Translations under genes and position numbers: made by a program
Origin: an uncultured Gammaproteobacteria bacterium
GTDB lineage: Bacteria > Patescibacteriota > Microgenomatia > Daviesbacterales > UBA10151
Assembly: GCA_964625535.1 (NCBI GenBank)
Contig: CAZVEX010000003.1
Span: 55,524-119,523 of the forward strand
Reading direction: 5' to 3'
DNA length: 64,000 bases
Shown: in pieces, positions 28,048 to 42,677 of the stretch
How positions within the stretch are numbered: the stretch's first letter is position 1
Layout of the letters: each line of letters starts with the position of its first letter
The notes under the pieces: generated by a model
Told to the model about the DNA's origin: nothing
Databases searched by the model: none
What the model saw: the letters and a program-made list of their open reading frames with translations, nothing else

Positions 28048-28076
28048 TTGACAAACTACTGATAAATTCATACAAT
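28048..28076 (+). promoter_or_regulatory. Sigma-70-type promoter TTGACA-N17-TACAAT upstream of rplJ
   Basis: TTGACA at 28048-28053, a 17-nt spacer, TACAAT at 28071-28076. Confidence 0.55.
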
Positions 28077-28107
28077 ACAAAGGCTTAAGACAGTGGGCAT
28101 CATAAGA

Positions 28108-28148
28108 CCCACCGAGGCGGGAAAGAGCGCCTCGCGGCGCTTTTTTAT
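28108..28148 (+). promoter_or_regulatory. rplJ (L10) leader attenuator: mutually exclusive hairpins ending in terminator-like AGCGCC-TCGC-GGCGCT + T6
   Basis: GAGGCG-ggaaaga-GCGCCTC and AGCGCC-TCGC-GGCGCT share the GCGCCTC segment. The second hairpin is followed by TTTTTT, 2 nt before the rplJ ATG. Confidence 0.5.
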
Positions 28149-28655
28149 ATGGCTAAAACAAGACAGCAAAAAGAAGAAACAGTCCAAAAGATAAGCGAGA
28201 AGTTCTCGCGGGCCAAGTCTGTGGTATTTGCCGATTACAAAGGCTTGACTATGAAACAACTATCGGATCTTCGCTCCAAGCTGGCCGATGTCCAGGGGGA
28301 ATTTACTGTTACTAAAAATACATTATTGAAATTAGCATTTCCAGCCTCCGACCTTGAAGGTCCGACTGCAACTCTTTTTGCATATGACGATGAAGTTTCC
28401 CCCATCAAATTGTTAGTTAAGGCCTTGAAAGATGCCGGGTTGGGCAAAATTAAAGCCGGATTTTTGGGTCAGGACATGCTGGATGAAGGAAGAATCCTGC
28501 AACTGGCTACTTTGCCAACTAAAGATGAACTTCGGGCCCAAACAGTGGGCATTTTGGTTGCTCCTTTACAAGGCATGGTTTCTGTTTTACAGGGAAATTT
28601 AAGAAATTTTGTATATGCATTGAGTGAGATTCAAAAACAGAAGGGGGGTGTTTAA
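28149..28655 (+). CDS. rplJ: 50S ribosomal protein L10
   Basis: MAKTRQQKEETVQKISEKFSRAKSVVFADYKGLTMKQLSDLRSKL is the L10 N-terminal signature. Confidence 0.9.
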   Translation: MAKTRQQKEETVQKISEKFSRAKSVVFADYKGLTMKQLSDLRSKLADVQGEFTVTKNTLLKLAFPASDLEGPTATLFAYDDEVSPIKLLVKALKDAGLGKIKAGFLGQDMLDEGRILQLATLPTKDELRAQTVGILVAPLQGMVSVLQGNLRNFVYALSEIQKQKGGV

Positions 28656-28658
28656 TAT

Positions 28659-29153
28659 ATGGCAGATGAACCATCCTCCTCCGCTGAAGCTACGGAGGAC
28701 AAGCAAGATCAAGTTGAAGAAATAAAAACTGAAGAAAAAGTTGAGGAGCCGAAAAAAGTTGTCAAGCCGGTCAGTGCCAATCTTGAAAAAATCATAGAAC
28801 AGATTGAAAAATTATCTGTTTTGGAACTGGCAGATTTGGTACACGGCTTGGAAGAGAGGTTTGGTGTTTCAGCATCAGCTCCGGTTATGGCAGCAGGTCC
28901 GGCCGCCTCACCTTCGGCGGGCGAGCCAACTGAGGAAAAAACTACCTTTAATGTAATTTTGGCAAGCGCGGGGGCCAATAAAATTGGGGCAATCAAGGCA
29001 GTTCGGGAACTGGTACCAACATTAGGCTTAAAAGAAGCCAAAGATTTGGTAGAAGCAGCTCCCAAGCCGGTTTTGGAATCGGTTAATAAAGTTACAGCTG
29101 AAGAAGCCAAGAAAAAACTGGAAGCAGCAGGGGCCACAGTCGAGTTGCAATAA
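28659..29153 (+). CDS. rplL: 50S ribosomal protein L7/L12
   Basis: N-terminal dimerisation helix, Ala/Pro hinge, and C-terminal domain [56 protein letters not shown]. Confidence 0.95.
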
Positions 29154-34629: not shown

Positions 34630-34702
34630 CGACCCTGGAGGGAATTGCACCCCCGACCACTCCCTTAGGACGGGATTGCTCTATCTACTGAGCTACAGGG
34701 CC
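34630..34702 (-). tRNA. tRNA-Arg (anticodon CCU), discriminator G
   Basis: Reverse complement gives acceptor GGCCCTG/CAGGGTC, D-arm GCTC-AGTAGATA-GAGC, anticodon loop GTCCTAA and T-arm GGGGG-TGCAATT-CCCTC. The T-loop is non-canonical (G at position 55), hence the moderate confidence. Confidence 0.55.
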
Positions 34703-34748: not shown

Positions 34749-34820
34749 CGGGGTGTAGGTCATCGGTAGACCGCTGCGTTCGGGTCGCAGAAGTAGAGAG
34801 TTCAATTCTCTCCACCCCGA
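34749..34820 (+). tRNA. tRNA-Pro (anticodon CGG)
   Basis: Acceptor CGGGGTG/CACCCCG. Anticodon stem CTGCG/CGCAG with loop TTCGGGT. T-arm GAGAG-TTCAATT-CTCTC. Discriminator A. Confidence 0.75.
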
Positions 34821-35329
34821 CCCTTCGACTTTCCAAACCACAGTTCAATTTCTTTTTTGGCTTCTTCTTCAGATCCCGAAGCATGGATTAAATTATAGAC
34901 AGGCCTGCCTTCGCGATTAGCATCTAAAATATTATCCGTACCCAAATCTCCTCTGATGGTCCCTTTTTGGGCAGTGGCCGGATCTGTAAAACCTGTTACT
35001 TCCCGGGCCAGCGATACGGCATTTTCTCCTTGCAAAACGATAGCTACGATCGGCCCGGAAGTGATAAATTTTCGAAGCCAGGTCACTACTCTTCTCCCCT
35101 GACCCTGGGCGCTCTTGACCTTTTGGCCGGCGGCAATGGTTTTTTCTCCGATAGATTTAAGATACTCCGGATCCATGGGATAGTGCTTTTCGATGATGTC
35201 CATGGGAGCCATCATTTCTTTTCTTTTAACCACCTTAAGTCCGGCTGCTGCGTAACGACGAATGATCTCACCGGCTAAATCCCGATGCATGGCATCTGGT
35301 TTAATCAGGATTAATGTTCTTTGTATCAT
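34802..35329 (-). CDS. ndk: Nucleoside diphosphate kinase
   Basis: QRTLILIKPDA, GPIVAIVLQGENA and NLIHASGS (the NxxHGSD active-site His region). The last 19 nt overlap tRNA-Pro on the opposite strand. Confidence 0.85.
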   Translation of the reverse strand: MIQRTLILIKPDAMHRDLAGEIIRRYAAAGLKVVKRKEMMAPMDIIEKHYPMDPEYLKSIGEKTIAAGQKVKSAQGQGRRVVTWLRKFITSGPIVAIVLQGENAVSLAREVTGFTDPATAQKGTIRGDLGTDNILDANREGRPVYNLIHASGSEEEAKKEIELWFGKSKGRGGEN

Positions 35330-35372: not shown

Positions 35373-36353
35373 TCACTTAATTTCCACATCTTCTACTATA
35401 GTTTCACCGCTATCAAAAACTTTTACCCTGGCAAAACGAGGTGTTTGAGAATTCCTTTGGGTAGTCACCGCTCCAATCGTTACCATAGGAAGGATTGTTT
35501 CCGGCTCGCTGTACTGGCTGAAAAAGTGGATATCTCCGGCAAAAACTTTTTTCACTCCCTCCTCTTTTAGTATTTTAGCCACTTTTTTGGCCTGGTCTTT
35601 TAAGGAAGGCTCTACCCTGCCCATGATATGATCTGATGAAGGATGATATAGCGGTTCGTGCACGAAGGCCAGGATAAACTTCACATTATTTGATTTTTTA
35701 AATCTTTCCAGTTCCTCCTGTAATCTTTGCAGTTGAGTCTCTCCAAAACCCTGGTAATTATCGCTGTTATTCAAAAGTAAAAAAACTACTCCCTCAAATT
35801 CAAAACTCTGCCAGGGAGAACCAAACACCTGGGAAAAGTTAAAGGTAGGCTCTTTTTGTTTATCTCTGGCATCCCATAAGTCATGATCCCCGGGAATGAC
35901 AAAATACCTGATCTTGCCCTCATCCAGGACCTTTTTGGCATTTTGCAACTCCTCAAAAGTACCTACATCCGTATAGTCACCCAGGCCGATGATAAAACTA
36001 ATTTCCCCCACTTGGTGCAAAGCTTTTTTCAATAACTCATTGTCGTTGTGAGAATCTGCAAACAGTCCAAAAGTAAAAAGAAGCTGGCCGGGACTTGTTT
36101 GAGTGGACTTGACCTCCTTTACTTCGCTTGGCTGGGGCTTTGACTCACGAACAATTTGTTTAGGCGAGGGTAAAAACTTTAGTAAGCTGGCAACCAGAGC
36201 CTTGGGGTCGGCGGCAATAGGGTCAATGCCGGAAAAATGCTTGTAGGCAGTATAAACTCCTGTCAGCAAAATGCCAAACATCACCAGAGACAGCAACAAT
36301 CTAAATATAACAAAAGCTAAATTACCGGATCGCTTTTTACGCCTTCCAAACAT
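35373..36353 (-). CDS. Membrane-anchored calcineurin-like metallophosphoesterase
   Basis: N-terminal TM anchor. Motifs FADSHND, GLGDYTD, VIPGDHDLW match the metallophosphatase metal-binding signature. Confidence 0.8.
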   Translation of the reverse strand: MFGRRKKRSGNLAFVIFRLLLSLVMFGILLTGVYTAYKHFSGIDPIAADPKALVASLLKFLPSPKQIVRESKPQPSEVKEVKSTQTSPGQLLFTFGLFADSHNDNELLKKALHQVGEISFIIGLGDYTDVGTFEELQNAKKVLDEGKIRYFVIPGDHDLWDARDKQKEPTFNFSQVFGSPWQSFEFEGVVFLLLNNSDNYQGFGETQLQRLQEELERFKKSNNVKFILAFVHEPLYHPSSDHIMGRVEPSLKDQAKKVAKILKEEGVKKVFAGDIHFFSQYSEPETILPMVTIGAVTTQRNSQTPRFARVKVFDSGETIVEDVEIK

Positions 36354-36354
36354 G

Positions 36355-38109
36355 TTACATCCTTTCCGGAGCTTCTATCCCTAAAAGATAAAGGCCCTGC
36401 TTTAAAACAGCAGCTACGGCGTTAGTTGCCGCCAGGCGAAATTTTTCTTTTTCTCCGGCTTTAAGAATACGATGCTTTTGATAAAACAAATTAAAAGCCT
36501 TGGCTAAATTTAATAAATATTCTGCCAGCGCATTAGGAGCAAAATTTTTGGCAGCTTCTTTTACAAAACTTTCAAAATATTCAATATTCTGCAAAAGCGC
36601 TCTTTCTTCAGGCTCCAAATCTGCCGGTGCCATAATTACTTTGTTATCAAAATTGGTAGCTTCCAGTACTGATCTGGCTCTGGCATAAGTATATTGGACA
36701 TAAGGCCCGCTGTCACCTTGCAAAGACACTGATTTTTCCAAATCAAAAATAACATCCATATGAGGAGACGACTTTAAAAGAGCAAACTTAATCGCACCAA
36801 TACTTACTATATCAACAATTTGTTGTTTCTCCTCTTTTTTAATATCCTTTGAAGTAGGACTTTTTTCCATCAAACCTACCACTTTTCTCCTGACTTGCTC
36901 AAACAGCCATTCAAAAGTTAAAACACTGCCCTTTCGGGAAGATAACTTACCTGAAGGAACCCTCACCATACCATGGCCGATATGTTTGGTGCTGGCAGCC
37001 AATTTTGGGTAAATTTGAGCCAAAGCAGTCATCAAAACCTTAAAATACTCGTTAATTTCGTTGCCGGTTACCACTATTGATTGATCGTAATCAAAATCCT
37101 GATGTTTTTTGACTGCCAAACCCAGCTCTTTAGCTTCATAAGTGGGCAGTCCCAAAGAGTTGATAAATACTCTTCTGTGCAATCCGTATTTTTCACCCGG
37201 GAATATGATCGCACCCTCACTTTGTTCAAATACCCCGTCATCCAGATGCTCTTTGACTATCTTCAAGCCATATTCCCCCATAATACTCTCGGGATAATAA
37301 TAGTCGAATTTAGTACCCAGACGTTTATAAATTGTTTCAAAATAATCCAGGCTCCACGATCTACCTTTTTCAAACAACTCTTCTGTTTCCTCAAGCTGCA
37401 AGCTTGCTGCCTTAATATGAACATAGATTAGAGAATTTATTTTTTTAATCTCTTCCGCAGCCTCCTTATCTTCTTCATAAGCCTTTGCTCCCAAAGCATA
37501 CGCTTCCCCTAAAAATCTAACTCTGTCTTTCGCAGATCTTTTTTCCAAATTTTTCATTTTTAATTTTTCATTTTTAATTTTCTGCTGCATTCCCCAGATA
37601 GATTTAGCCACATGCATGCCCACATCTCCAAAATAATCAGCTCTTTTAACCTTGGCCCCTTGTGCCTCAAGCAGCCTGCAAATGGATTCTCCGATAGTGT
37701 TTGAGAAAACATGCCCGATGTGAAACTCTTTAAAAGGGTTGGGGTCTGTAAATTCCACCAGAATTTTTTGTTTTTCTAAATTTTTAGCCTCAAACATTGG
37801 CTTTGATAGATTTTTCATCAAGGCTTCATTTTTAAGGAAAAAATTAATAAAACCATTAACTATTTTTATATCTTCTATATTTTTTTTACTGTCCCCTGTA
37901 GCCTGTAACCTGTTAGCTATTTCTTTAGCAATCTCATCCGGCGACTGCTTGTCATTAGCTGATGACTGTTTAGTCAGTTGCAACGGAATATTCGTACTAT
38001 AGTCTCCAAAGGCCGAATTTTTGGGGATAGATAAAACTATATCAGTAGATTTATATCCTAAATCCTCTACTGCTTTTTGCAAATCTTCCAAAATCTTCTG
38101 CTTGACCAT
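36355..38109 (-). CDS. argS: Arginine--tRNA ligase
   Basis: TDPNPFKEFHIGHVFSNTIGESI (class I HIGH region of ArgS), the N-terminal Arg_tRNA_synt_N pattern and the C-terminal DALR-type anticodon-binding domain. Confidence 0.9.
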   Translation of the reverse strand: MVKQKILEDLQKAVEDLGYKSTDIVLSIPKNSAFGDYSTNIPLQLTKQSSANDKQSPDEIAKEIANRLQATGDSKKNIEDIKIVNGFINFFLKNEALMKNLSKPMFEAKNLEKQKILVEFTDPNPFKEFHIGHVFSNTIGESICRLLEAQGAKVKRADYFGDVGMHVAKSIWGMQQKIKNEKLKMKNLEKRSAKDRVRFLGEAYALGAKAYEEDKEAAEEIKKINSLIYVHIKAASLQLEETEELFEKGRSWSLDYFETIYKRLGTKFDYYYPESIMGEYGLKIVKEHLDDGVFEQSEGAIIFPGEKYGLHRRVFINSLGLPTYEAKELGLAVKKHQDFDYDQSIVVTGNEINEYFKVLMTALAQIYPKLAASTKHIGHGMVRVPSGKLSSRKGSVLTFEWLFEQVRRKVVGLMEKSPTSKDIKKEEKQQIVDIVSIGAIKFALLKSSPHMDVIFDLEKSVSLQGDSGPYVQYTYARARSVLEATNFDNKVIMAPADLEPEERALLQNIEYFESFVKEAAKNFAPNALAEYLLNLAKAFNLFYQKHRILKAGEKEKFRLAATNAVAAVLKQGLYLLGIEAPERM

Positions 38110-38121
38110 AATCTAATAATA

Positions 38122-39012
38122 TCATATCAACCATAACAATAGTGCCTTTTGGATATGAAGTCTGTTTTCCGCTTCCTGGAAAACAACTGATTGAGGCCCA
38201 TCAATCACATCAGCTGTCACCTCTTCTCCCCTGTGAGCCGGCAGACAATGCATAAAAATGGCCTCTTTTTTAGCCAGACTCATGAGTTTTTTATTAACCT
38301 GATAAGGCTTAAATATCTCCATTCGTTTTTCTCTATCAGTATCTCCCATGCTTACCCAAGTATCCGTAACAACAACATCCGCATCTGCTACTGCTTCCTT
38401 TGGATCCACAGTTTCCAAAACTGATCCATATTTTTGGGCTTTTGAAACAATCGCAGGGCTCATCCAATAGCCTTTTGGGGATCCGCAAGCAAACAATGCA
38501 CCAAGCATGACTGCTCCCAAACAAAGCGAGTGGGTAACATTATTTTCCCCGTCTCCAACAAAGGCAATCTTAAACCCTTGAATCTTTGCTTTTATTTCCC
38601 AAATGGTAAATAAATCAGCCAAGGCCTGGCAGGGATGTTCCAAATCCGACAGGCCGTTAATAACAGGAACGCTTGCATATTCTGCCAATTTTTCCACAGT
38701 TTTGTGCTTAAATACCCTGGCCATAATCATATCTGCCATGCTTGATGTAACTCTGGCCACATCTCCCACTGATTCTCTTTTTTCCAGTCCAATATCAGAA
38801 GGCCCGAGATAGACTGCGTGGCCGCCAAGCTGGGTCATGGCTATTTCAAAAGAAAGCCTGGTTCTTAAGCTTGGCTTTTCAAAAATCATGGCCAGCGATT
38901 TGCCTTTTAGGACAGATTTGCTTTGCTTTTTTGCCAAGGCAAACACCTGCCAAATTTCTTTGGCTGAAAGATCGGCAATGGAAAGAAAATCACGCTTCTT
39001 AATCAAACCCAC
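38122..39012 (-). CDS. argF: Ornithine carbamoyltransferase
   Basis: Carbamoyl-phosphate site SLRTR (STRTR motif), plus HPCQALAD and HCLP ornithine-binding motifs. Confidence 0.9.
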   Translation of the reverse strand: MGLIKKRDFLSIADLSAKEIWQVFALAKKQSKSVLKGKSLAMIFEKPSLRTRLSFEIAMTQLGGHAVYLGPSDIGLEKRESVGDVARVTSSMADMIMARVFKHKTVEKLAEYASVPVINGLSDLEHPCQALADLFTIWEIKAKIQGFKIAFVGDGENNVTHSLCLGAVMLGALFACGSPKGYWMSPAIVSKAQKYGSVLETVDPKEAVADADVVVTDTWVSMGDTDREKRMEIFKPYQVNKKLMSLAKKEAIFMHCLPAHRGEEVTADVIDGPQSVVFQEAENRLHIQKALLLWLI

Positions 39013-40303
39013 CTTGAATAATCCCTCCCTTTTTTATCTTTTCTTTTTTAATACCGTCTCTTTTGCTTTGATTGGCTAATTTCATCTGTAAGGAATAAAG
39101 CTCAATGAAGCCAGCCGAAGCATTAACATTTAGATTATACCCTTCTTTGTTGGTAAAGGAAACATGGTCAAGGCCAAATGGTGATTTTAATGCCACCACT
39201 GTGGTGTTCCCTTTGAAAAGTTCAATTATTACTTCTCCTGTTGCCTTTTCGTTAACTTTATCATTAAAGGCATTTATAGCTCCCATAACCGGATCAAACC
39301 ATAAAGCACCATAACAAAAATATCCCCATTTTATATCCATCATTTCCTTGAGTTCATTGAGAGTTCTGGTTGAAACATACTCTTCAACTTTTCTGTGCGC
39401 TTCAATAATGACATGCGCACCAGGATGTTCATAAACTCCTCTATCTTTAAGTCCGATAATCCTATCTTCCAACAGATACACAGTGCCAACACCATGCTTT
39501 CCGGCAATTTTATTAAGCTTCATGATAAGTTTTGCCAAAGATAGCTTTTCTCCATTAAGCTTGACCGGAATTCCCTTTTCAAAGGTCAAACTCACAAGTT
39601 CTGCAGCATCCAGCGCATTTTTGGGCAATGTGTATGTAGTGAGAAACTTATCCGCTTGCGGAATTTCACTGGGAATTTCTATTTCTCCACCTTGCCAGGT
39701 AATACCCCACATATTGTCATCGTCGCTATAGGGAAAATCAACATCGGCAGGTACTAGAATACCATGTTTTTTAGCATAGGCGATTTCTTCATTTCTATCC
39801 ATTCCCCATTCCCTAACAGGAGCTATAATTTTCATCTTAGGATCGTGTGTTAAGATATATCCCTCAATCCTAACCTGATCATTTCCTTTGCCTGTTGCTC
39901 CATGAGCAATTGCATCAGCGCCCTCTTTTTGAGCAATCTCAACTGCCTTTTTCCCCAAAATCGCCCGGCCCATCGGCGTTGACAGATGATATTCACCCTG
40001 ATACGAGGCATTTGCCTTTATTCCCTTGGCCAGATATTCATCTGCAAACTCTTCTTTAACATCAAGGGTAATGGCTTTGACTGCGCCGAGTTTGAGCGCC
40101 TTTTTCTTAATCGCTTCCAAATCGTCGTGCTGCTGCCCCAAATCCAAAGTCAAGGCAACTACTTTCGCCTTGTATTGATCTTGAATCCACTTCAACATCA
40201 CCGATGTATCAAGTCCTCCCGAATAAAGCAGCAAAACTTTTTTTACCTCTCCAATTTTGGCCTCGTATGAGCTAACTTTTGTATAACTTGTCTTTACTTT
40301 CAT
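38999..40303 (-). CDS. argG: Argininosuccinate synthase
   Basis: N-terminal PP-loop LLYSGGLDTSV (AYSGGLDTS) and the conserved synthetase core. Confidence 0.9.
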   Translation of the reverse strand: MKVKTSYTKVSSYEAKIGEVKKVLLLYSGGLDTSVMLKWIQDQYKAKVVALTLDLGQQHDDLEAIKKKALKLGAVKAITLDVKEEFADEYLAKGIKANASYQGEYHLSTPMGRAILGKKAVEIAQKEGADAIAHGATGKGNDQVRIEGYILTHDPKMKIIAPVREWGMDRNEEIAYAKKHGILVPADVDFPYSDDDNMWGITWQGGEIEIPSEIPQADKFLTTYTLPKNALDAAELVSLTFEKGIPVKLNGEKLSLAKLIMKLNKIAGKHGVGTVYLLEDRIIGLKDRGVYEHPGAHVIIEAHRKVEEYVSTRTLNELKEMMDIKWGYFCYGALWFDPVMGAINAFNDKVNEKATGEVIIELFKGNTTVVALKSPFGLDHVSFTNKEGYNLNVNASAGFIELYSLQMKLANQSKRDGIKKEKIKKGGIIQGGFD

Positions 40304-41478
40304 ATATTTTTCACCTCCTGATATGCTTTTCTAAATGGCATGCCTTTTTGTACCAGTTCATATGCTTTTTGGGCTGCAAAAATCTCTTTAGTTAAAGCTC
40401 CCTCCAAAGTTTGCTTATTCGGAGTTAGATTATTGAGTAAAATACCTGCTGTCTTAATACTGTCCAAAGTAATCTCCAGACTTTCCAAGAGTGGTTTTTT
40501 AATATCCTGCAAATCTCTGTTATAACCTGAAATTAAGTTGCTTGAAATAGACACTATTTGAGTGTAATAACCTAAAACAAGATGCACTTTGCTTCGCAGT
40601 AGTTCGGCCACATCCAGATTTTTCTTTTGCGGCATCATGCTGCTACCCGTAGTTACCGCATCTGAAACTTGAAAGAAATTAAATTCGGATGTGGTAAATA
40701 ACATTAGATCCGATGCGAATTTATTAATGGATAGAAGAATCTGTGTAAGCGTAGCCAAAATTACGGCTTCAATTTTGCCTTTGGAATTTTGACAGTATAA
40801 AAAGTTATTTTGCACTTTTGCAAAACCCAAAAGCTTGGCCATATATTCCCTGTCCAATTTAAGCGGAGTACCGTATCCTGCGGCTGAACCCAAAGGCGAT
40901 TGATCATTTAATTCCAAGGCTGCATTAAGAAGAGTGGCATCATCCTTGAGTGAATCCATAAAACTGCCTGCCCAAATCTCTATTGAAGAAGGCATAGCCT
41001 TTTGCATATGGGTATACCCGGGCATCTTGATATGGCCATATTTTTTGGAAAAAATTTCAAAGCTTTTTATTAAACCGGTTAGTTCTTGCTTGATCTTCTT
41101 CATCATTTCCTTGCTGTAAAGCCTAATCGCGGTTAAAACCTGATCATTTCTAGATCTGCCGGTATGAATCTTTTGACCAACTTCACCATATTTTTGGGTT
41201 AAAAAGTTCTCAATTTTGGTATGCATATCCTCATCGCCAATTTTCAACAGAAATTTACCCTGTTTATCAAGAAAAAGAATTTCCAAAAGTCCCTTCTCTA
41301 ACTTTGCAAGCTCGCTTTTTGAAAGAATGTTGATTTTATAAAGCATTTTGGCATGGGCCGCTGAAGCCAAGCAATCATATTTAACCAGCTTTTGATCCAT
41401 TAAAAGATCATCCTTGGTCTCAAAGGCTTCAATAACAGGATCTAGTTTATATTCATTTTTCTGCCAAAGTTTTTTCAT
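40300..41478 (-). CDS. argH: Argininosuccinate lyase (short form)
   Basis: Fumarate-lyase signatures HTGRSRNDQV and GSSMMPQKKNLDV. Confidence 0.85.
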   Translation of the reverse strand: MKKLWQKNEYKLDPVIEAFETKDDLLMDQKLVKYDCLASAAHAKMLYKINILSKSELAKLEKGLLEILFLDKQGKFLLKIGDEDMHTKIENFLTQKYGEVGQKIHTGRSRNDQVLTAIRLYSKEMMKKIKQELTGLIKSFEIFSKKYGHIKMPGYTHMQKAMPSSIEIWAGSFMDSLKDDATLLNAALELNDQSPLGSAAGYGTPLKLDREYMAKLLGFAKVQNNFLYCQNSKGKIEAVILATLTQILLSINKFASDLMLFTTSEFNFFQVSDAVTTGSSMMPQKKNLDVAELLRSKVHLVLGYYTQIVSISSNLISGYNRDLQDIKKPLLESLEITLDSIKTAGILLNNLTPNKQTLEGALTKEIFAAQKAYELVQKGMPFRKAYQEVKNI

Positions 41479-41489
41479 ACTTTCTCCAA

Positions 41490-41708
41490 TAAAAAATCCC
41501 GTCTCTGCATCCTAAAAACTTAGGACACAAGGACGGGATCTCCGTGGTGCCACCCTGGTTTCCTGACTGGTTACCCAATCAAGACACTTATTGCCGACTG
41601 ACATCGGCTGCCAACTTTTACGGTTCAGCCTCCGTAGAGCATTTTGGCTCTCAGCTCCTGGATCGCGACTCCAGTACAAACGCTTAATATATTATTATAT
41701 CATACTTG
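41490..41708 (-). ncRNA. Putative T-box riboswitch leader (tRNA-sensing antiterminator) upstream of argH-argG-argF-argS operon
   Basis: The minus-strand RNA contains AGGGTGGCACCACGG (T-box consensus AGGGUGGNACCGCG, 13 of 14 positions). It is followed by the terminator hairpin ATCCCGTC...GACGGGAT plus a T6 run, ending ~17 nt before the argH ATG. The UGGC bulge would pair with an NCCA end whose discriminator is G, consistent with the tRNA-Arg found here. Confidence 0.55.
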
Positions 41709-42677
41709 TCAATACCTTGTGCGCAGGGCCAGTAACGCTCCTGCCAGGACAAAATAATACCCCACCCAGACAATCCACAAAAACTCCCCCACATATTCCC
41801 AGGCAAAAGGCAAAGAGCTAAAAAACTGGACTATATAAATAAAATAGGTCAGCATGATATTTAAAACAAAGCTCAAAAGTTGGCCAAGCAAAGAAACTGC
41901 GCTTCCTAAAAGCAGAAACAAAAATCCCACTCCCATAATATAAGGAACTATCCAAAGCACCAGGACATTGGCAAACAGCGATACAAAAGAAAATTGATGA
42001 AAATTGGAGGCGATAACAGGGGTAACCATCAGTTGGGCCCCCAAAGTGACTGCCAGATTCTCTTTAACAATATTGGGTAAAAAATGCATTGATTTTTCCA
42101 AGATGGGAGCCACCACAATTACCCCAAACGAAGCTAAAAAACTCAACTGAAAAGACAAATCGCTGATCCAGCGAGGATTGACTAAAAGAAAAAAGCCCGC
42201 CACTAAAATTAAAACCCACAGGCCATCATTCTGACGGCCAAAAGTTTGGGCTAATGAGGCCAATCCAAACATCAAAGCAGCCCGCAAAATGGGAATTTGA
42301 GCTCCAGTCAATAAAGTGTAAGCTACAATAGCAAAAAGTGTTAGAAAAATGGCTGTTTTTCTTTTGATTAAACCCGAAAGATGCATAATAAAACCGGCCA
42401 AAATGGTCAGGTTCTGGCCCGAAGCCACTACAATATGTAAAGTTGAAGTATCCCGCAAAGCCAGACGCAAATCATAAGGCAAATCCAGCTTTACCCCCAA
42501 AACTATGCCCGAGAGAAGCTGCGCTTGAGGAGAAGGCAAAAACTCTTTCGATTTTTGGGTTAAAAAAATTCTCTGATCTTTGAAAATTTCTGTTTGAACT
42601 TCCCAAGTTGGCTGCTGCCACCTGACAAAATATAACAAAACATATAAAACTATTGCCAATATAAGTGGTAATTTCAC
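41709..42677 (-). CDS. comEC: ComEC/Rec2-family competence membrane channel (competence domain only)
   Basis: Polytopic membrane protein with LLSGIVLGVKLDLP...TSTLHIVVASGQNLTIL matching the Competence (PF03772) core. Adjacent to comEA. Confidence 0.7.
   Translation of the reverse strand: MKLPLILAIVLYVLLYFVRWQQPTWEVQTEIFKDQRIFLTQKSKEFLPSPQAQLLSGIVLGVKLDLPYDLRLALRDTSTLHIVVASGQNLTILAGFIMHLSGLIKRKTAIFLTLFAIVAYTLLTGAQIPILRAALMFGLASLAQTFGRQNDGLWVLILVAGFFLLVNPRWISDLSFQLSFLASFGVIVVAPILEKSMHFLPNIVKENLAVTLGAQLMVTPVIASNFHQFSFVSLFANVLVLWIVPYIMGVGFLFLLLGSAVSLLGQLLSFVLNIMLTYFIYIVQFFSSLPFAWEYVGEFLWIVWVGYYFVLAGALLALRTRY

Follow-up and report, generated by a model that had tools for sequence, protein, structure and literature searches.

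The 64,000-nucleotide (nt) stretch of contig CAZVEX010000003.1 analysed here (hereafter the window) carries, on the minus strand between a ComEC gene and argH, a leader which is very probably a functional T-box, i.e., an arginine-specific, tRNA-sensing element controlling transcription of argH-argG-argF-argS. This assignment draws on the primary sequence of the leader, its predicted folds and its conservation among related leaders of the Microgenomates, a group within the Candidate Phyla Radiation (CPR). The gap between ComEC and argH measures 230 nt (41479-41708, minus strand, as are all positions below unless stated otherwise). The first-pass annotation, an earlier reading of the letters of the window, had given the leader 219 nt, a figure that fits the stretch between the ComEC stop and the last U of the terminator U-run, but not the intergenic gap as a whole.

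T-box Core and Expression Platform

The T-box sequence AGGGUGGCACCACG at 41556-41543 agrees with the consensus AGGGUGGNACCGCG at 12 of its 13 specified positions; in an extended reading (41556-41542) it is AGGGTGGCACCACGG (also written AGGGUGGCACCACGG). The core pattern RGGTGGNACCNCG occurs a single time in the window, compared to an expectation of 0.06 from shuffled sequences. T-box sequence and antiterminator together occupy 41529-41556 and consist of AGGG, the bulge UGGCACC (41546-41552), an upper helix ACGG[AGAUC]CCGU, and CCUU; the 7-nt bulge carries UGGC, and the antiterminator by itself folds with -4.1 kcal/mol. It is followed by an intrinsic terminator, AUCCCGUC...GACGGGAU plus U6 (41491-41539, -26.6 kcal/mol), whose 5' strand and the antiterminator's 3' strand have the segment CCCGUCCUU in common, making the two folds mutually exclusive. 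By analogy with described systems, a weak antiterminator facing a strong terminator is the usual balance of a T-box, in which tRNA would be needed to hold the antiterminator. The T-box-type leader with an antiterminator/terminator switch that had been proposed for the arginine operon from the sequence is supported, and the GC hairpin with its U6 is likewise found (41539-41491), but the U-run ends 12 nt, not 17 nt, before the ATG of argH.

Both the Shine-Dalgarno sequence GGAG (41487-41484) and the argH start codon (together 41476-41487) lie outside the terminator hairpin. Since the ribosome-binding site is not sequestered, transcriptional control is expected rather than masking of that site. 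As a whole, the leader folds far more stably than shuffled versions of itself (z = -6.2). Upstream of the T-box sequence, the Rfam alignment and the predicted fold place the purine motif AAUAAGUG (RRRNG, or RAG), then Stem III UCUUGAUUGG[GUAA]CCAGUCAGGA, and then AA (41561-41592). This succession of AAGUG, a Stem III of 10 bp capped by a GUAA loop, and AA fits the RRRNG–Stem III–AA rule given by TBDB (PMC7778990), and the RAG motif has been described in a study of the ileS T-box of Mycobacterium tuberculosis (PMC11297988).

A probable extended -10 promoter element, TGATATAAT, can be read at 41694-41702, and TGnTATAAT or TGnTATACT stands at equal distance from a conserved GCGUUUG in four related loci (L081, L083, L092, and L102 in our numbering). 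TTGACA at 41707-41712 is too close to this element to serve as its -35. The transcript would thus probably start near 41686, giving an RNA of ∼195 nt up to the U-run (41491-41685). A sigma-70 and terminator scan found neither promoter nor terminator, as the promoter is of the extended -10 type and the loop and stem of the terminator fall outside the limits of the scan.

Conservation in Related Leaders

For comparison, regions upstream of argH were gathered from a genome scan, a metagenome pattern scan and eleven contig look-ups. T-box cores were found before argH, or before an acetyltransferase gene directly preceding argH, in 18 distinct Microgenomates lineages. All core-bearing leaders have a lower helix of 4 bp (AAGG or AGGG paired to CCUU), a bulge UGG[C/U]ACC (the form with UGGU occurring in L081, L092, L093, and L023) and an upper helix, and their terminators (-25 to -34 kcal/mol) reuse the 3' strand of the antiterminator as their own 5' strand. 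In 16 identically anchored leaders all seven tabulated antiterminator pairs form, with compensation in the upper helix from A-U to G-C, from C-G to U-A, and from G-C to C-G or U-A. The metagenome pattern scan, which used conserved blocks as anchors and placed no constraint on Stem I, returned three loci, all of them arg leaders of the L003 type, and no other codons in the same architecture.

A Proposed Compact Decoding Module

The 5' half of the leader is proposed to form a decoding module whose elements appear in the order known from T-boxes, in strongly reduced form. At the base of Stem I, the 5' strand AAGCGUUUG lies at 41677-41685, where in the alignment to the Rfam T-box model (RF00230) G41683-C41682 pair with G41655-C41654; both base pairs are invariant across 11 relatives. 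Above them sits a K-turn-like internal loop with a canonical 3' strand (GGAGC) and a 5' strand reading UUUGUA where UGA is expected. The window thus has GUA in place of GA, whereas L102 (GC-AUU-GA...GA-GC) and the relatives that we refer to as subtype B have the canonical GC-NNN-GA...GA-GC. Stem I itself is an ultrashort hairpin of 5 bp with a 7-nt loop, CUGGA[GUCGCGA]UCCAG (41658-41674). Its stem takes the forms CUGGA/UCCAG, UUGGA/UCCAG, CUUCC/GGAAG, CUUGU/ACAAG, and UGGG/CCCG in the relatives, and despite these five complementary forms the loop core GUCGCG is unchanged in all 11 leaders of subtype A. It is followed by a minimal Stem II, AGAGC[CAAAAU]GCUCU (41636-41651), with compensatory double changes at all five pairs and a conserved A-rich loop, and by Stem IIA, ACGG[AGGCUGAA]CCGU, with the F-box-like CCGUAAAA (41616-41635). 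In the RF00230 alignment the F-box-like CCGUAA falls within Stem IIA, whose helix ACGG/CCGU is changed to ACAG/CUGU in L093 and L094.

The linker between this module and the purine motif (41593-41610) contains CAGCC (41606-41610), which is able to pair with GGCUG of the IIA loop in a putative IIB pseudoknot. The pairing consists of five Watson-Crick pairs in the window, and 58 of 2000 shuffles do equally well (4 of 2000 for L094). Alternatively, the window linker could form a local hairpin, GCCGA[UGUCAG]UCGGC (41593-41608).

We built a covariance model of positions 41615-41686 with the proposed structure imposed. In ∼660 kb of CPR and DPANN loci this model found exactly one copy per arg leader and none beyond the arg leaders. 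Among the 11 strong matches 96% of the alignment cells pair, compared to 20-43% after displacement of the 3' partners by one to three columns, double changes occur at 10 of the 16 pairs, and not one of 500 shuffles attained the observed covariation score. Stem II and Stem IIA were also recovered, with covariation, by RNAalifold on a plain MAFFT alignment on which no structure had been imposed.

In the relatives, the linker (e.g., 9850-9880 of L083) holds a conserved hairpin, the outer stem of which covaries (CAUG/CAUG, GCAUU/AAUGC, GUGCU/AGCAC, AGCG/CGCU) and which has a small internal loop and, further in, UCG[GNRA]CGG. This hairpin is absent from the window, which has the plain GCCGA[UGUCAG]UCGGC in its place. 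A pairing of its loop (CGGAG) with the 5' strand of the GC-rich hairpin at the tip of Stem III of these leaders was considered and rejected as too inconsistent across lineages.

Proposed Specifier and Cognate tRNA

The proposed Specifier Sequence is CGC (Arg) at 41665-41667, with U before it and a purine (G) after it. It is the only arginine codon within GUCGCG, it is invariant in the 11 subtype-A leaders, and the layout U-CGC-purine resembles positions 33-37 of an anticodon loop. From these features CGC in the terminal loop of Stem I is most likely the specifier, an assignment that we hold a little less firmly than that of the leader as a T-box. The subtype-B leaders (L023, L097, L099, L101, and L036) present the loop CGCA on a 6-bp hairpin with a covarying stem (GUCUAC/GUAGAC vs. 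GUCCGC/GCGGAC). In L009, a relative from Roizmanbacteria whose Stem I is long and canonical, the Specifier Loop aligns as GAA-G-AGG-G, and in L007, which has a short Stem I, CU-CGA-G was read by eye beside the closing helix; AGG and CGA are both arginine codons with a purine next to them.

A CGC specifier implies a cognate tRNA with the anticodon GCG or ICG. The contig of L091, whose leader has the loop AGUCGCGC and the bulge UGGC, also encodes a tRNA-Arg(GCG) with the acceptor stem GCUCUUG/CAAGGGC followed by G, which fits both CGC and UGGC. In the genome of the window a CGY-reading tRNA must exist as well, because CGC and CGU make up ∼20% of the arginine codons in the long open reading frames (ORFs) of the window. 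The window itself encodes a tRNA-Arg(CCU) (34630-34702, minus strand) with the acceptor stem GGCCCUG/CAGGGUC followed by G, i.e., with the discriminator G73, and a tRNA-Arg(CCU) with G73, which would read AGG, is also found next to the operon in L083-L088. The first-pass annotation had matched the UGGC bulge to the tRNA-Arg(CCU) of the window; this is correct for the discriminator, but the anticodon does not match CGC. Agreement between UGGC and G73 is thus seen for the tRNA-Arg(GCG) of L091 and the tRNA-Arg(CCU) of the window and of L083-L088, and the CGC reader of the genome studied here is not among them.

The same annotation had placed the specifier, as CGG or AGG, in CUACGGAGGCUG. The tRNA-Arg(CCU) gene that comes directly after the operon would then supply the reader, and we regard a T-box built in this way as improbable. 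AGG is present in CUACGGAGGCUG and the neighboring tRNA has the right discriminator, the IIA loop starts with AGA or AGG, both arginine codons, in 11 of 11 subtype-A leaders, and the canonical relative L009 does use AGG, but in its Stem I. However, the segment CUACGGAGGCUG aligns to Stem IIA and the F-box of the RF00230 model, and the ACGG/CCGU surrounding AGG is a covarying helix, so that what had been taken for the surroundings of a specifier is Stem IIA with its loop. Moreover, subtype-B leaders read AAG, AAA, or GAG, which are not arginine codons, at the same positions of the IIA loop, the window linker offers a 5-bp partner to GGCUG of this loop, and the T-boxes described in the literature that we examined always have their specifier in Stem I.

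Rfam Searches

A search of the window for T-boxes at the gathering threshold of Rfam gave no match. With permissive filters, RF00230 was the only meaningful match, spanning all 219 model positions with 40.7 bits (E = 1.4e-5 for the whole window). Its alignment swaps 76 Stem I positions of the model for 7 nt, and the low score follows from the replacement of Stem I by a hairpin of 5 bp whose loop has 7 nt; the fit is good in the 3' half, which runs from Stem II and Stem IIA/F-box over the purine motif and Stem III to the T-box sequence with the antiterminator. The relatives score 68.5 bits (L009) or 34.5 bits or are not detected, most of them not even at E ≤ 0.01, and none attains the gathering score. 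If these leaders are T-boxes, the threshold of Rfam would pass over a whole lineage of them in the CPR, which amounts to an annotation gap. In the first-pass annotation a sub-threshold score and a lack of any Stem I or specifier-loop structure had been named as results that would speak against a T-box. The score does lie below the threshold (40.7 vs. 93 bits), but the leader does have a short Stem I and a specifier loop, backed by the comparison with relatives.

Evidence Against and Alternative Explanations

Several observations weigh against a functional T-box. Apart from the score of 40.7 bits, far under the gathering score of 93, the leader has no distal Stem I platform (no AG bulge, distal loop or Specifier internal loop) and its Stem II has no recognizable S-turn, while transcriptional T-boxes generally require a Stem I platform according to a 2020 review. 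The IIB pseudoknot is inconsistent, as relatives with the loop AGACGAAA have no partner for it within 16 nt. The alignment used for the covariation analysis was fitted to the proposed structure and is thus biased toward it, and RNAalifold misses the Stem I hairpin on the unfitted MAFFT alignment, in which a shift of one column in the sequences whose loop has 8 nt conceals it; instead it pairs the invariant 5' GCG with CGC of the loop, neither side of which varies. A tRNA-Arg(GCG/ACG) is not encoded within the 64 kb of the window. Finally, L094 has a complete decoding module but no T-box core, so that the module may not always work alike.

This last relative also bears on an alternative in which the 5' domain would be an aptamer for another ligand (e.g., arginine or a related metabolite) or a protein site, joined to a T-box-type discriminator. 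L094 combines the complete 5' domain with a terminator-like hairpin, the RF00230 score stems mostly from the 3' half, and the invariant GUCGCG loop could be a contact for a ligand or a protein. Nevertheless this arrangement is unlikely in our estimate: the order of K-turn base, Stem I, Stem II, and finally Stem IIA/F-box is that of a T-box decoder, the size of the domain agrees with the M. tuberculosis ileS module, where the linker begins at nt 79 (PMC11297988), four different Stem I architectures have an arginine codon with a purine after it where one would be expected, and the tRNA-Arg(GCG) of L091 matches perfectly. In addition, a T-box discriminator cannot choose its tRNA without a decoder.

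The leader could also be the relic of a decayed T-box that no longer senses tRNA, its terminator acting as a constitutive attenuator or marking the end of ComEC transcription. A sub-threshold Rfam score, a missing Stem I platform and a reduced genome would all agree with decay, and L094 shows that parts of the leader can be lost. We nonetheless give this scenario little credence, since in many lineages compensatory changes preserve the antiterminator as well as Stem I, Stem II, Stem IIA, and Stem III, and the specifier loop, the T-box sequence and the bulge vary little or not at all. Furthermore, there would be a high cost to a constitutive terminator of -27 kcal/mol placed 12 nt before argS and biosynthetic genes that are essential.

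Attenuation by a leader peptide, with ribosomes stalling at the four arginine codons of a 30-codon ORF that can be read across the T-box core of the window (AUG at 41606), was rejected as extremely improbable, as this ORF has no ribosome-binding site and is not conserved, the leader ORFs of relatives varying in position, frame and sequence and being absent from L023, L094, and L099.

Comparison With Known T-boxes

Like the canonical class I transcriptional T-boxes (RF00230; Bacillus subtilis tyrS and glyQS), the window leader has a 14-nt T-box sequence, a 7-nt bulge with UGGN, the pairing partner of the NCCA end of tRNA, a weak antiterminator opposed to a strong intrinsic terminator, a Stem III between RRRNG and AA, and a Stem IIA/F-box, and like them it presents in Stem I a codon for the regulated amino acid and precedes genes for an aminoacyl-tRNA synthetase and for biosynthesis. 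Unlike them, it has no long Stem I, and hence no platform for docking the tRNA elbow, and its Stem II has just 5 bp and no recognizable S-turn. The class I examples are from Firmicutes, whereas the host of the window leader belongs to the CPR (Microgenomates). The T-boxes of argS in Firmicutes, as treated in surveys such as that of Vitreschak et al. in 2008, reportedly have a canonical long Stem I and rarely control arginine biosynthesis genes; arginine specificity and control of argS would be what they have in common with the leader described here.

A short Stem I with the Specifier in its terminal loop is also the design of the ultrashort-Stem-I (class II) T-boxes of ileS in Actinobacteria such as Mycobacterium smegmatis and M. 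tuberculosis. These are described as translational, with sequestration of the Shine-Dalgarno sequence, whereas the window leader has a terminator with U6 and a free ribosome-binding site, and they are described from Actinobacteria as regulators of ileS only, with the specifier AUC and a response to tRNA-Ile, in contrast to CGC, argH/G/F/S and a CPR host. The Stem II of the window is shorter still than that of M. tuberculosis ileS, which must be intact (PMC11297988). A 2023 preprint likewise defines the ultrashort class by the Specifier in the terminal loop, with all members regulating ileS, and the class II model of TBDB was searched in Actinobacteria only (PMC7778990). From its sequence, the window leader has the core features of a T-box, fails on the canonical Stem I and on the Rfam threshold, and has the Stem I design of class II, but not the other class II traits.

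Full-text literature searches for T-boxes together with the CPR or Patescibacteria found no report, T-boxes are not mentioned in a 2024 perspective on Patescibacteria, and the literature searched holds very little on gene regulation in the CPR. Within this limited literature, the combination of an ultrashort Stem I, a terminator, arginine specificity, control of arginine biosynthesis and argS, and a CPR host was not found described together. We are inclined, with only slightly more confidence than doubt, to see here the first described member of a lineage of CPR (Microgenomates) T-boxes that would control termination of transcription and decode tRNA by no more than a hairpin resembling an anticodon loop and a minimal Stem II, making no contact to the tRNA elbow.

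Proposed Mechanism and Implications

In the mechanism that we propose, the nascent leader would fold into a compact decoding module of ∼72 nt, consisting of the K-turn-like base, the 5-bp Stem I presenting CGC in its 7-nt loop, the 5-bp Stem II with its A-rich loop, and Stem IIA/F-box. Uncharged tRNA-Arg (anticodon GCG or ICG) would pair with CGC, and its 3' end (G73-C-C-A) with UGGC in the 7-nt bulge. The weak antiterminator (-4 kcal/mol), which would stack on Stem III, would be held by this second contact, so that RNA polymerase could read through into argH. Charged tRNA would not make the bulge contact, the terminator (-27 kcal/mol) would form, and transcription would end 12 nt before the argH start. 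We infer from the sequences the binding of tRNA, the response to its charging, the start of transcription and the nucleotides that take over from the elbow contact; compensation for the latter might come from the A-rich loop of Stem II, from the conserved GNRA hairpin of the linker, or from the very long Stem III of relatives. As raised by L094, the decoding module alone may also be able to gate termination.

Reviews of T-boxes hold that a long Stem I platform is needed for the fast capture of tRNA in transcriptional control and that ultrashort forms are tolerated only under reversible translational control. A natural terminator-type T-box without the platform would directly test this rule, and, if the proposed mechanism is true, docking to the tRNA elbow would not be required for co-transcriptional (kinetic) T-box control. 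The leader would also offer a minimal tRNA-sensing transcriptional switch of ∼195 nt for structural and engineering work. As for the biology of the host, these reduced CPR genomes retain arginine synthesis, and a functional T-box would place it, together with argS, under the control of tRNA charging.

Operon and Genomic Context

The regulated operon extends from 41478 to 34802 on the minus strand (NCBIfam and Pfam assignments). It comprises argH (40300-41478, ATG at 41478), argG (38999-40303), argF (38122-39012), and argS (36355-38109), each above its NCBIfam equivalog cut-off, followed 3' of argS by a gene for a calcineurin-like phosphoesterase (35373-36353) and by ndk as the last gene (34802-35329). 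We infer co-transcription from argH through ndk from the gene overlaps and short gaps. Upstream of the leader lies the ComEC-N gene, with its stop codon at 41709-41711; the order of the four arginine genes and the ComEC neighbor are thus as described in the first-pass annotation. The closest named relatives of ArgH are from Candidatus Daviesbacteria and Levyibacteria, both Microgenomates, and the closest relatives keep the entire order ComEC, leader, argH-argG-argF-argS-phosphoesterase-ndk. On the plus strand, an ORF of 76 aa with a TTG start (41591-41821) overlaps the leader and was discarded as unsupported.

ArgH of the window is a short form of 392 residues that is without ∼65 C-terminal residues of the 455-position TIGR00838 model. 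Short forms with 45-55% identity are found in the DPANN archaea Micrarchaeota, Woesearchaeota, and Iainarchaeum (L010, L012, L013, L016, and others), which suggests, at the level of sequence comparison, that a short-form argH is common to CPR and DPANN. At the other end of the operon a tRNA-Pro(CGG) gene on the plus strand (34749-34822) and the oppositely oriented ORF called as ndk share ∼20 nt at the 3' end of the latter, and the tRNA-Arg(CCU) lies beyond it on the operon strand. Elsewhere in the window, Rfam gives a match to L10_leader below threshold (28066-28156, plus strand, 31.6 bits compared to a gathering score of 44) directly upstream of rplJ (28149-28655) and rplL (28659-29153), which is probably a real but divergent ribosomal-protein leader.

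Variants and Other Leaders of Arginine Genes in Related Genomes

In eight lineages an extra terminator-like, GC-rich hairpin with U6-7 stands before the T-box core. A reading of these "tandem terminators" as two checkpoints was rejected, as folding shows the first hairpin to be the tip of a long composite Stem III with a covarying basal helix. Such a Stem III with a GC-rich tip and a conserved run of U6-7 occurs in L003, L005, L089, L090, L093, L001, L023, L097, and L036. According to a 2023 preprint, lengthening Stem III by 11 bp led to ∼six-fold tighter tRNA binding, and by analogy the natural long Stem IIIs of the relatives might compensate for the missing platform.

In L081 (1046-9069) and L093 (5087-12258) the same leader precedes argH-argG(-argF), followed by lysW, lysX, argC, argB, and argD, without argS; judged from its genes, this set makes up the whole of a LysW-carrier arginine pathway in a CPR genome. 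The argH leader of L094 (9815-10000, with the same sequence in L095) has the linker hairpin and a GC hairpin with U6 right before the ATG, without T-box sequence or antiterminator, and would be either a truncated derivative or a decoder acting alone.

A different conserved leader lies before argG in L094 (6789-6912) and before a second ornithine carbamoyltransferase gene in L097 (18195-18363), where carAB follows, and in L101 (5722-5919). L097 and L101 have the block GGCUUCAGGAUUAAACUAUCUCAAGGYUAUGCUUAAGAAAUGU in common, and all three of these non-T-box leaders end in the terminator AUCCGCC[AAUG]GGCGGAU with U7-8. By its sequence this leader could be an undescribed arginine-related RNA element. 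Non-T-box leaders with strong terminators also precede argH in other Patescibacteria (L011, L018, L019, and L021), and those of L018 and L019 have conserved sequence in common.

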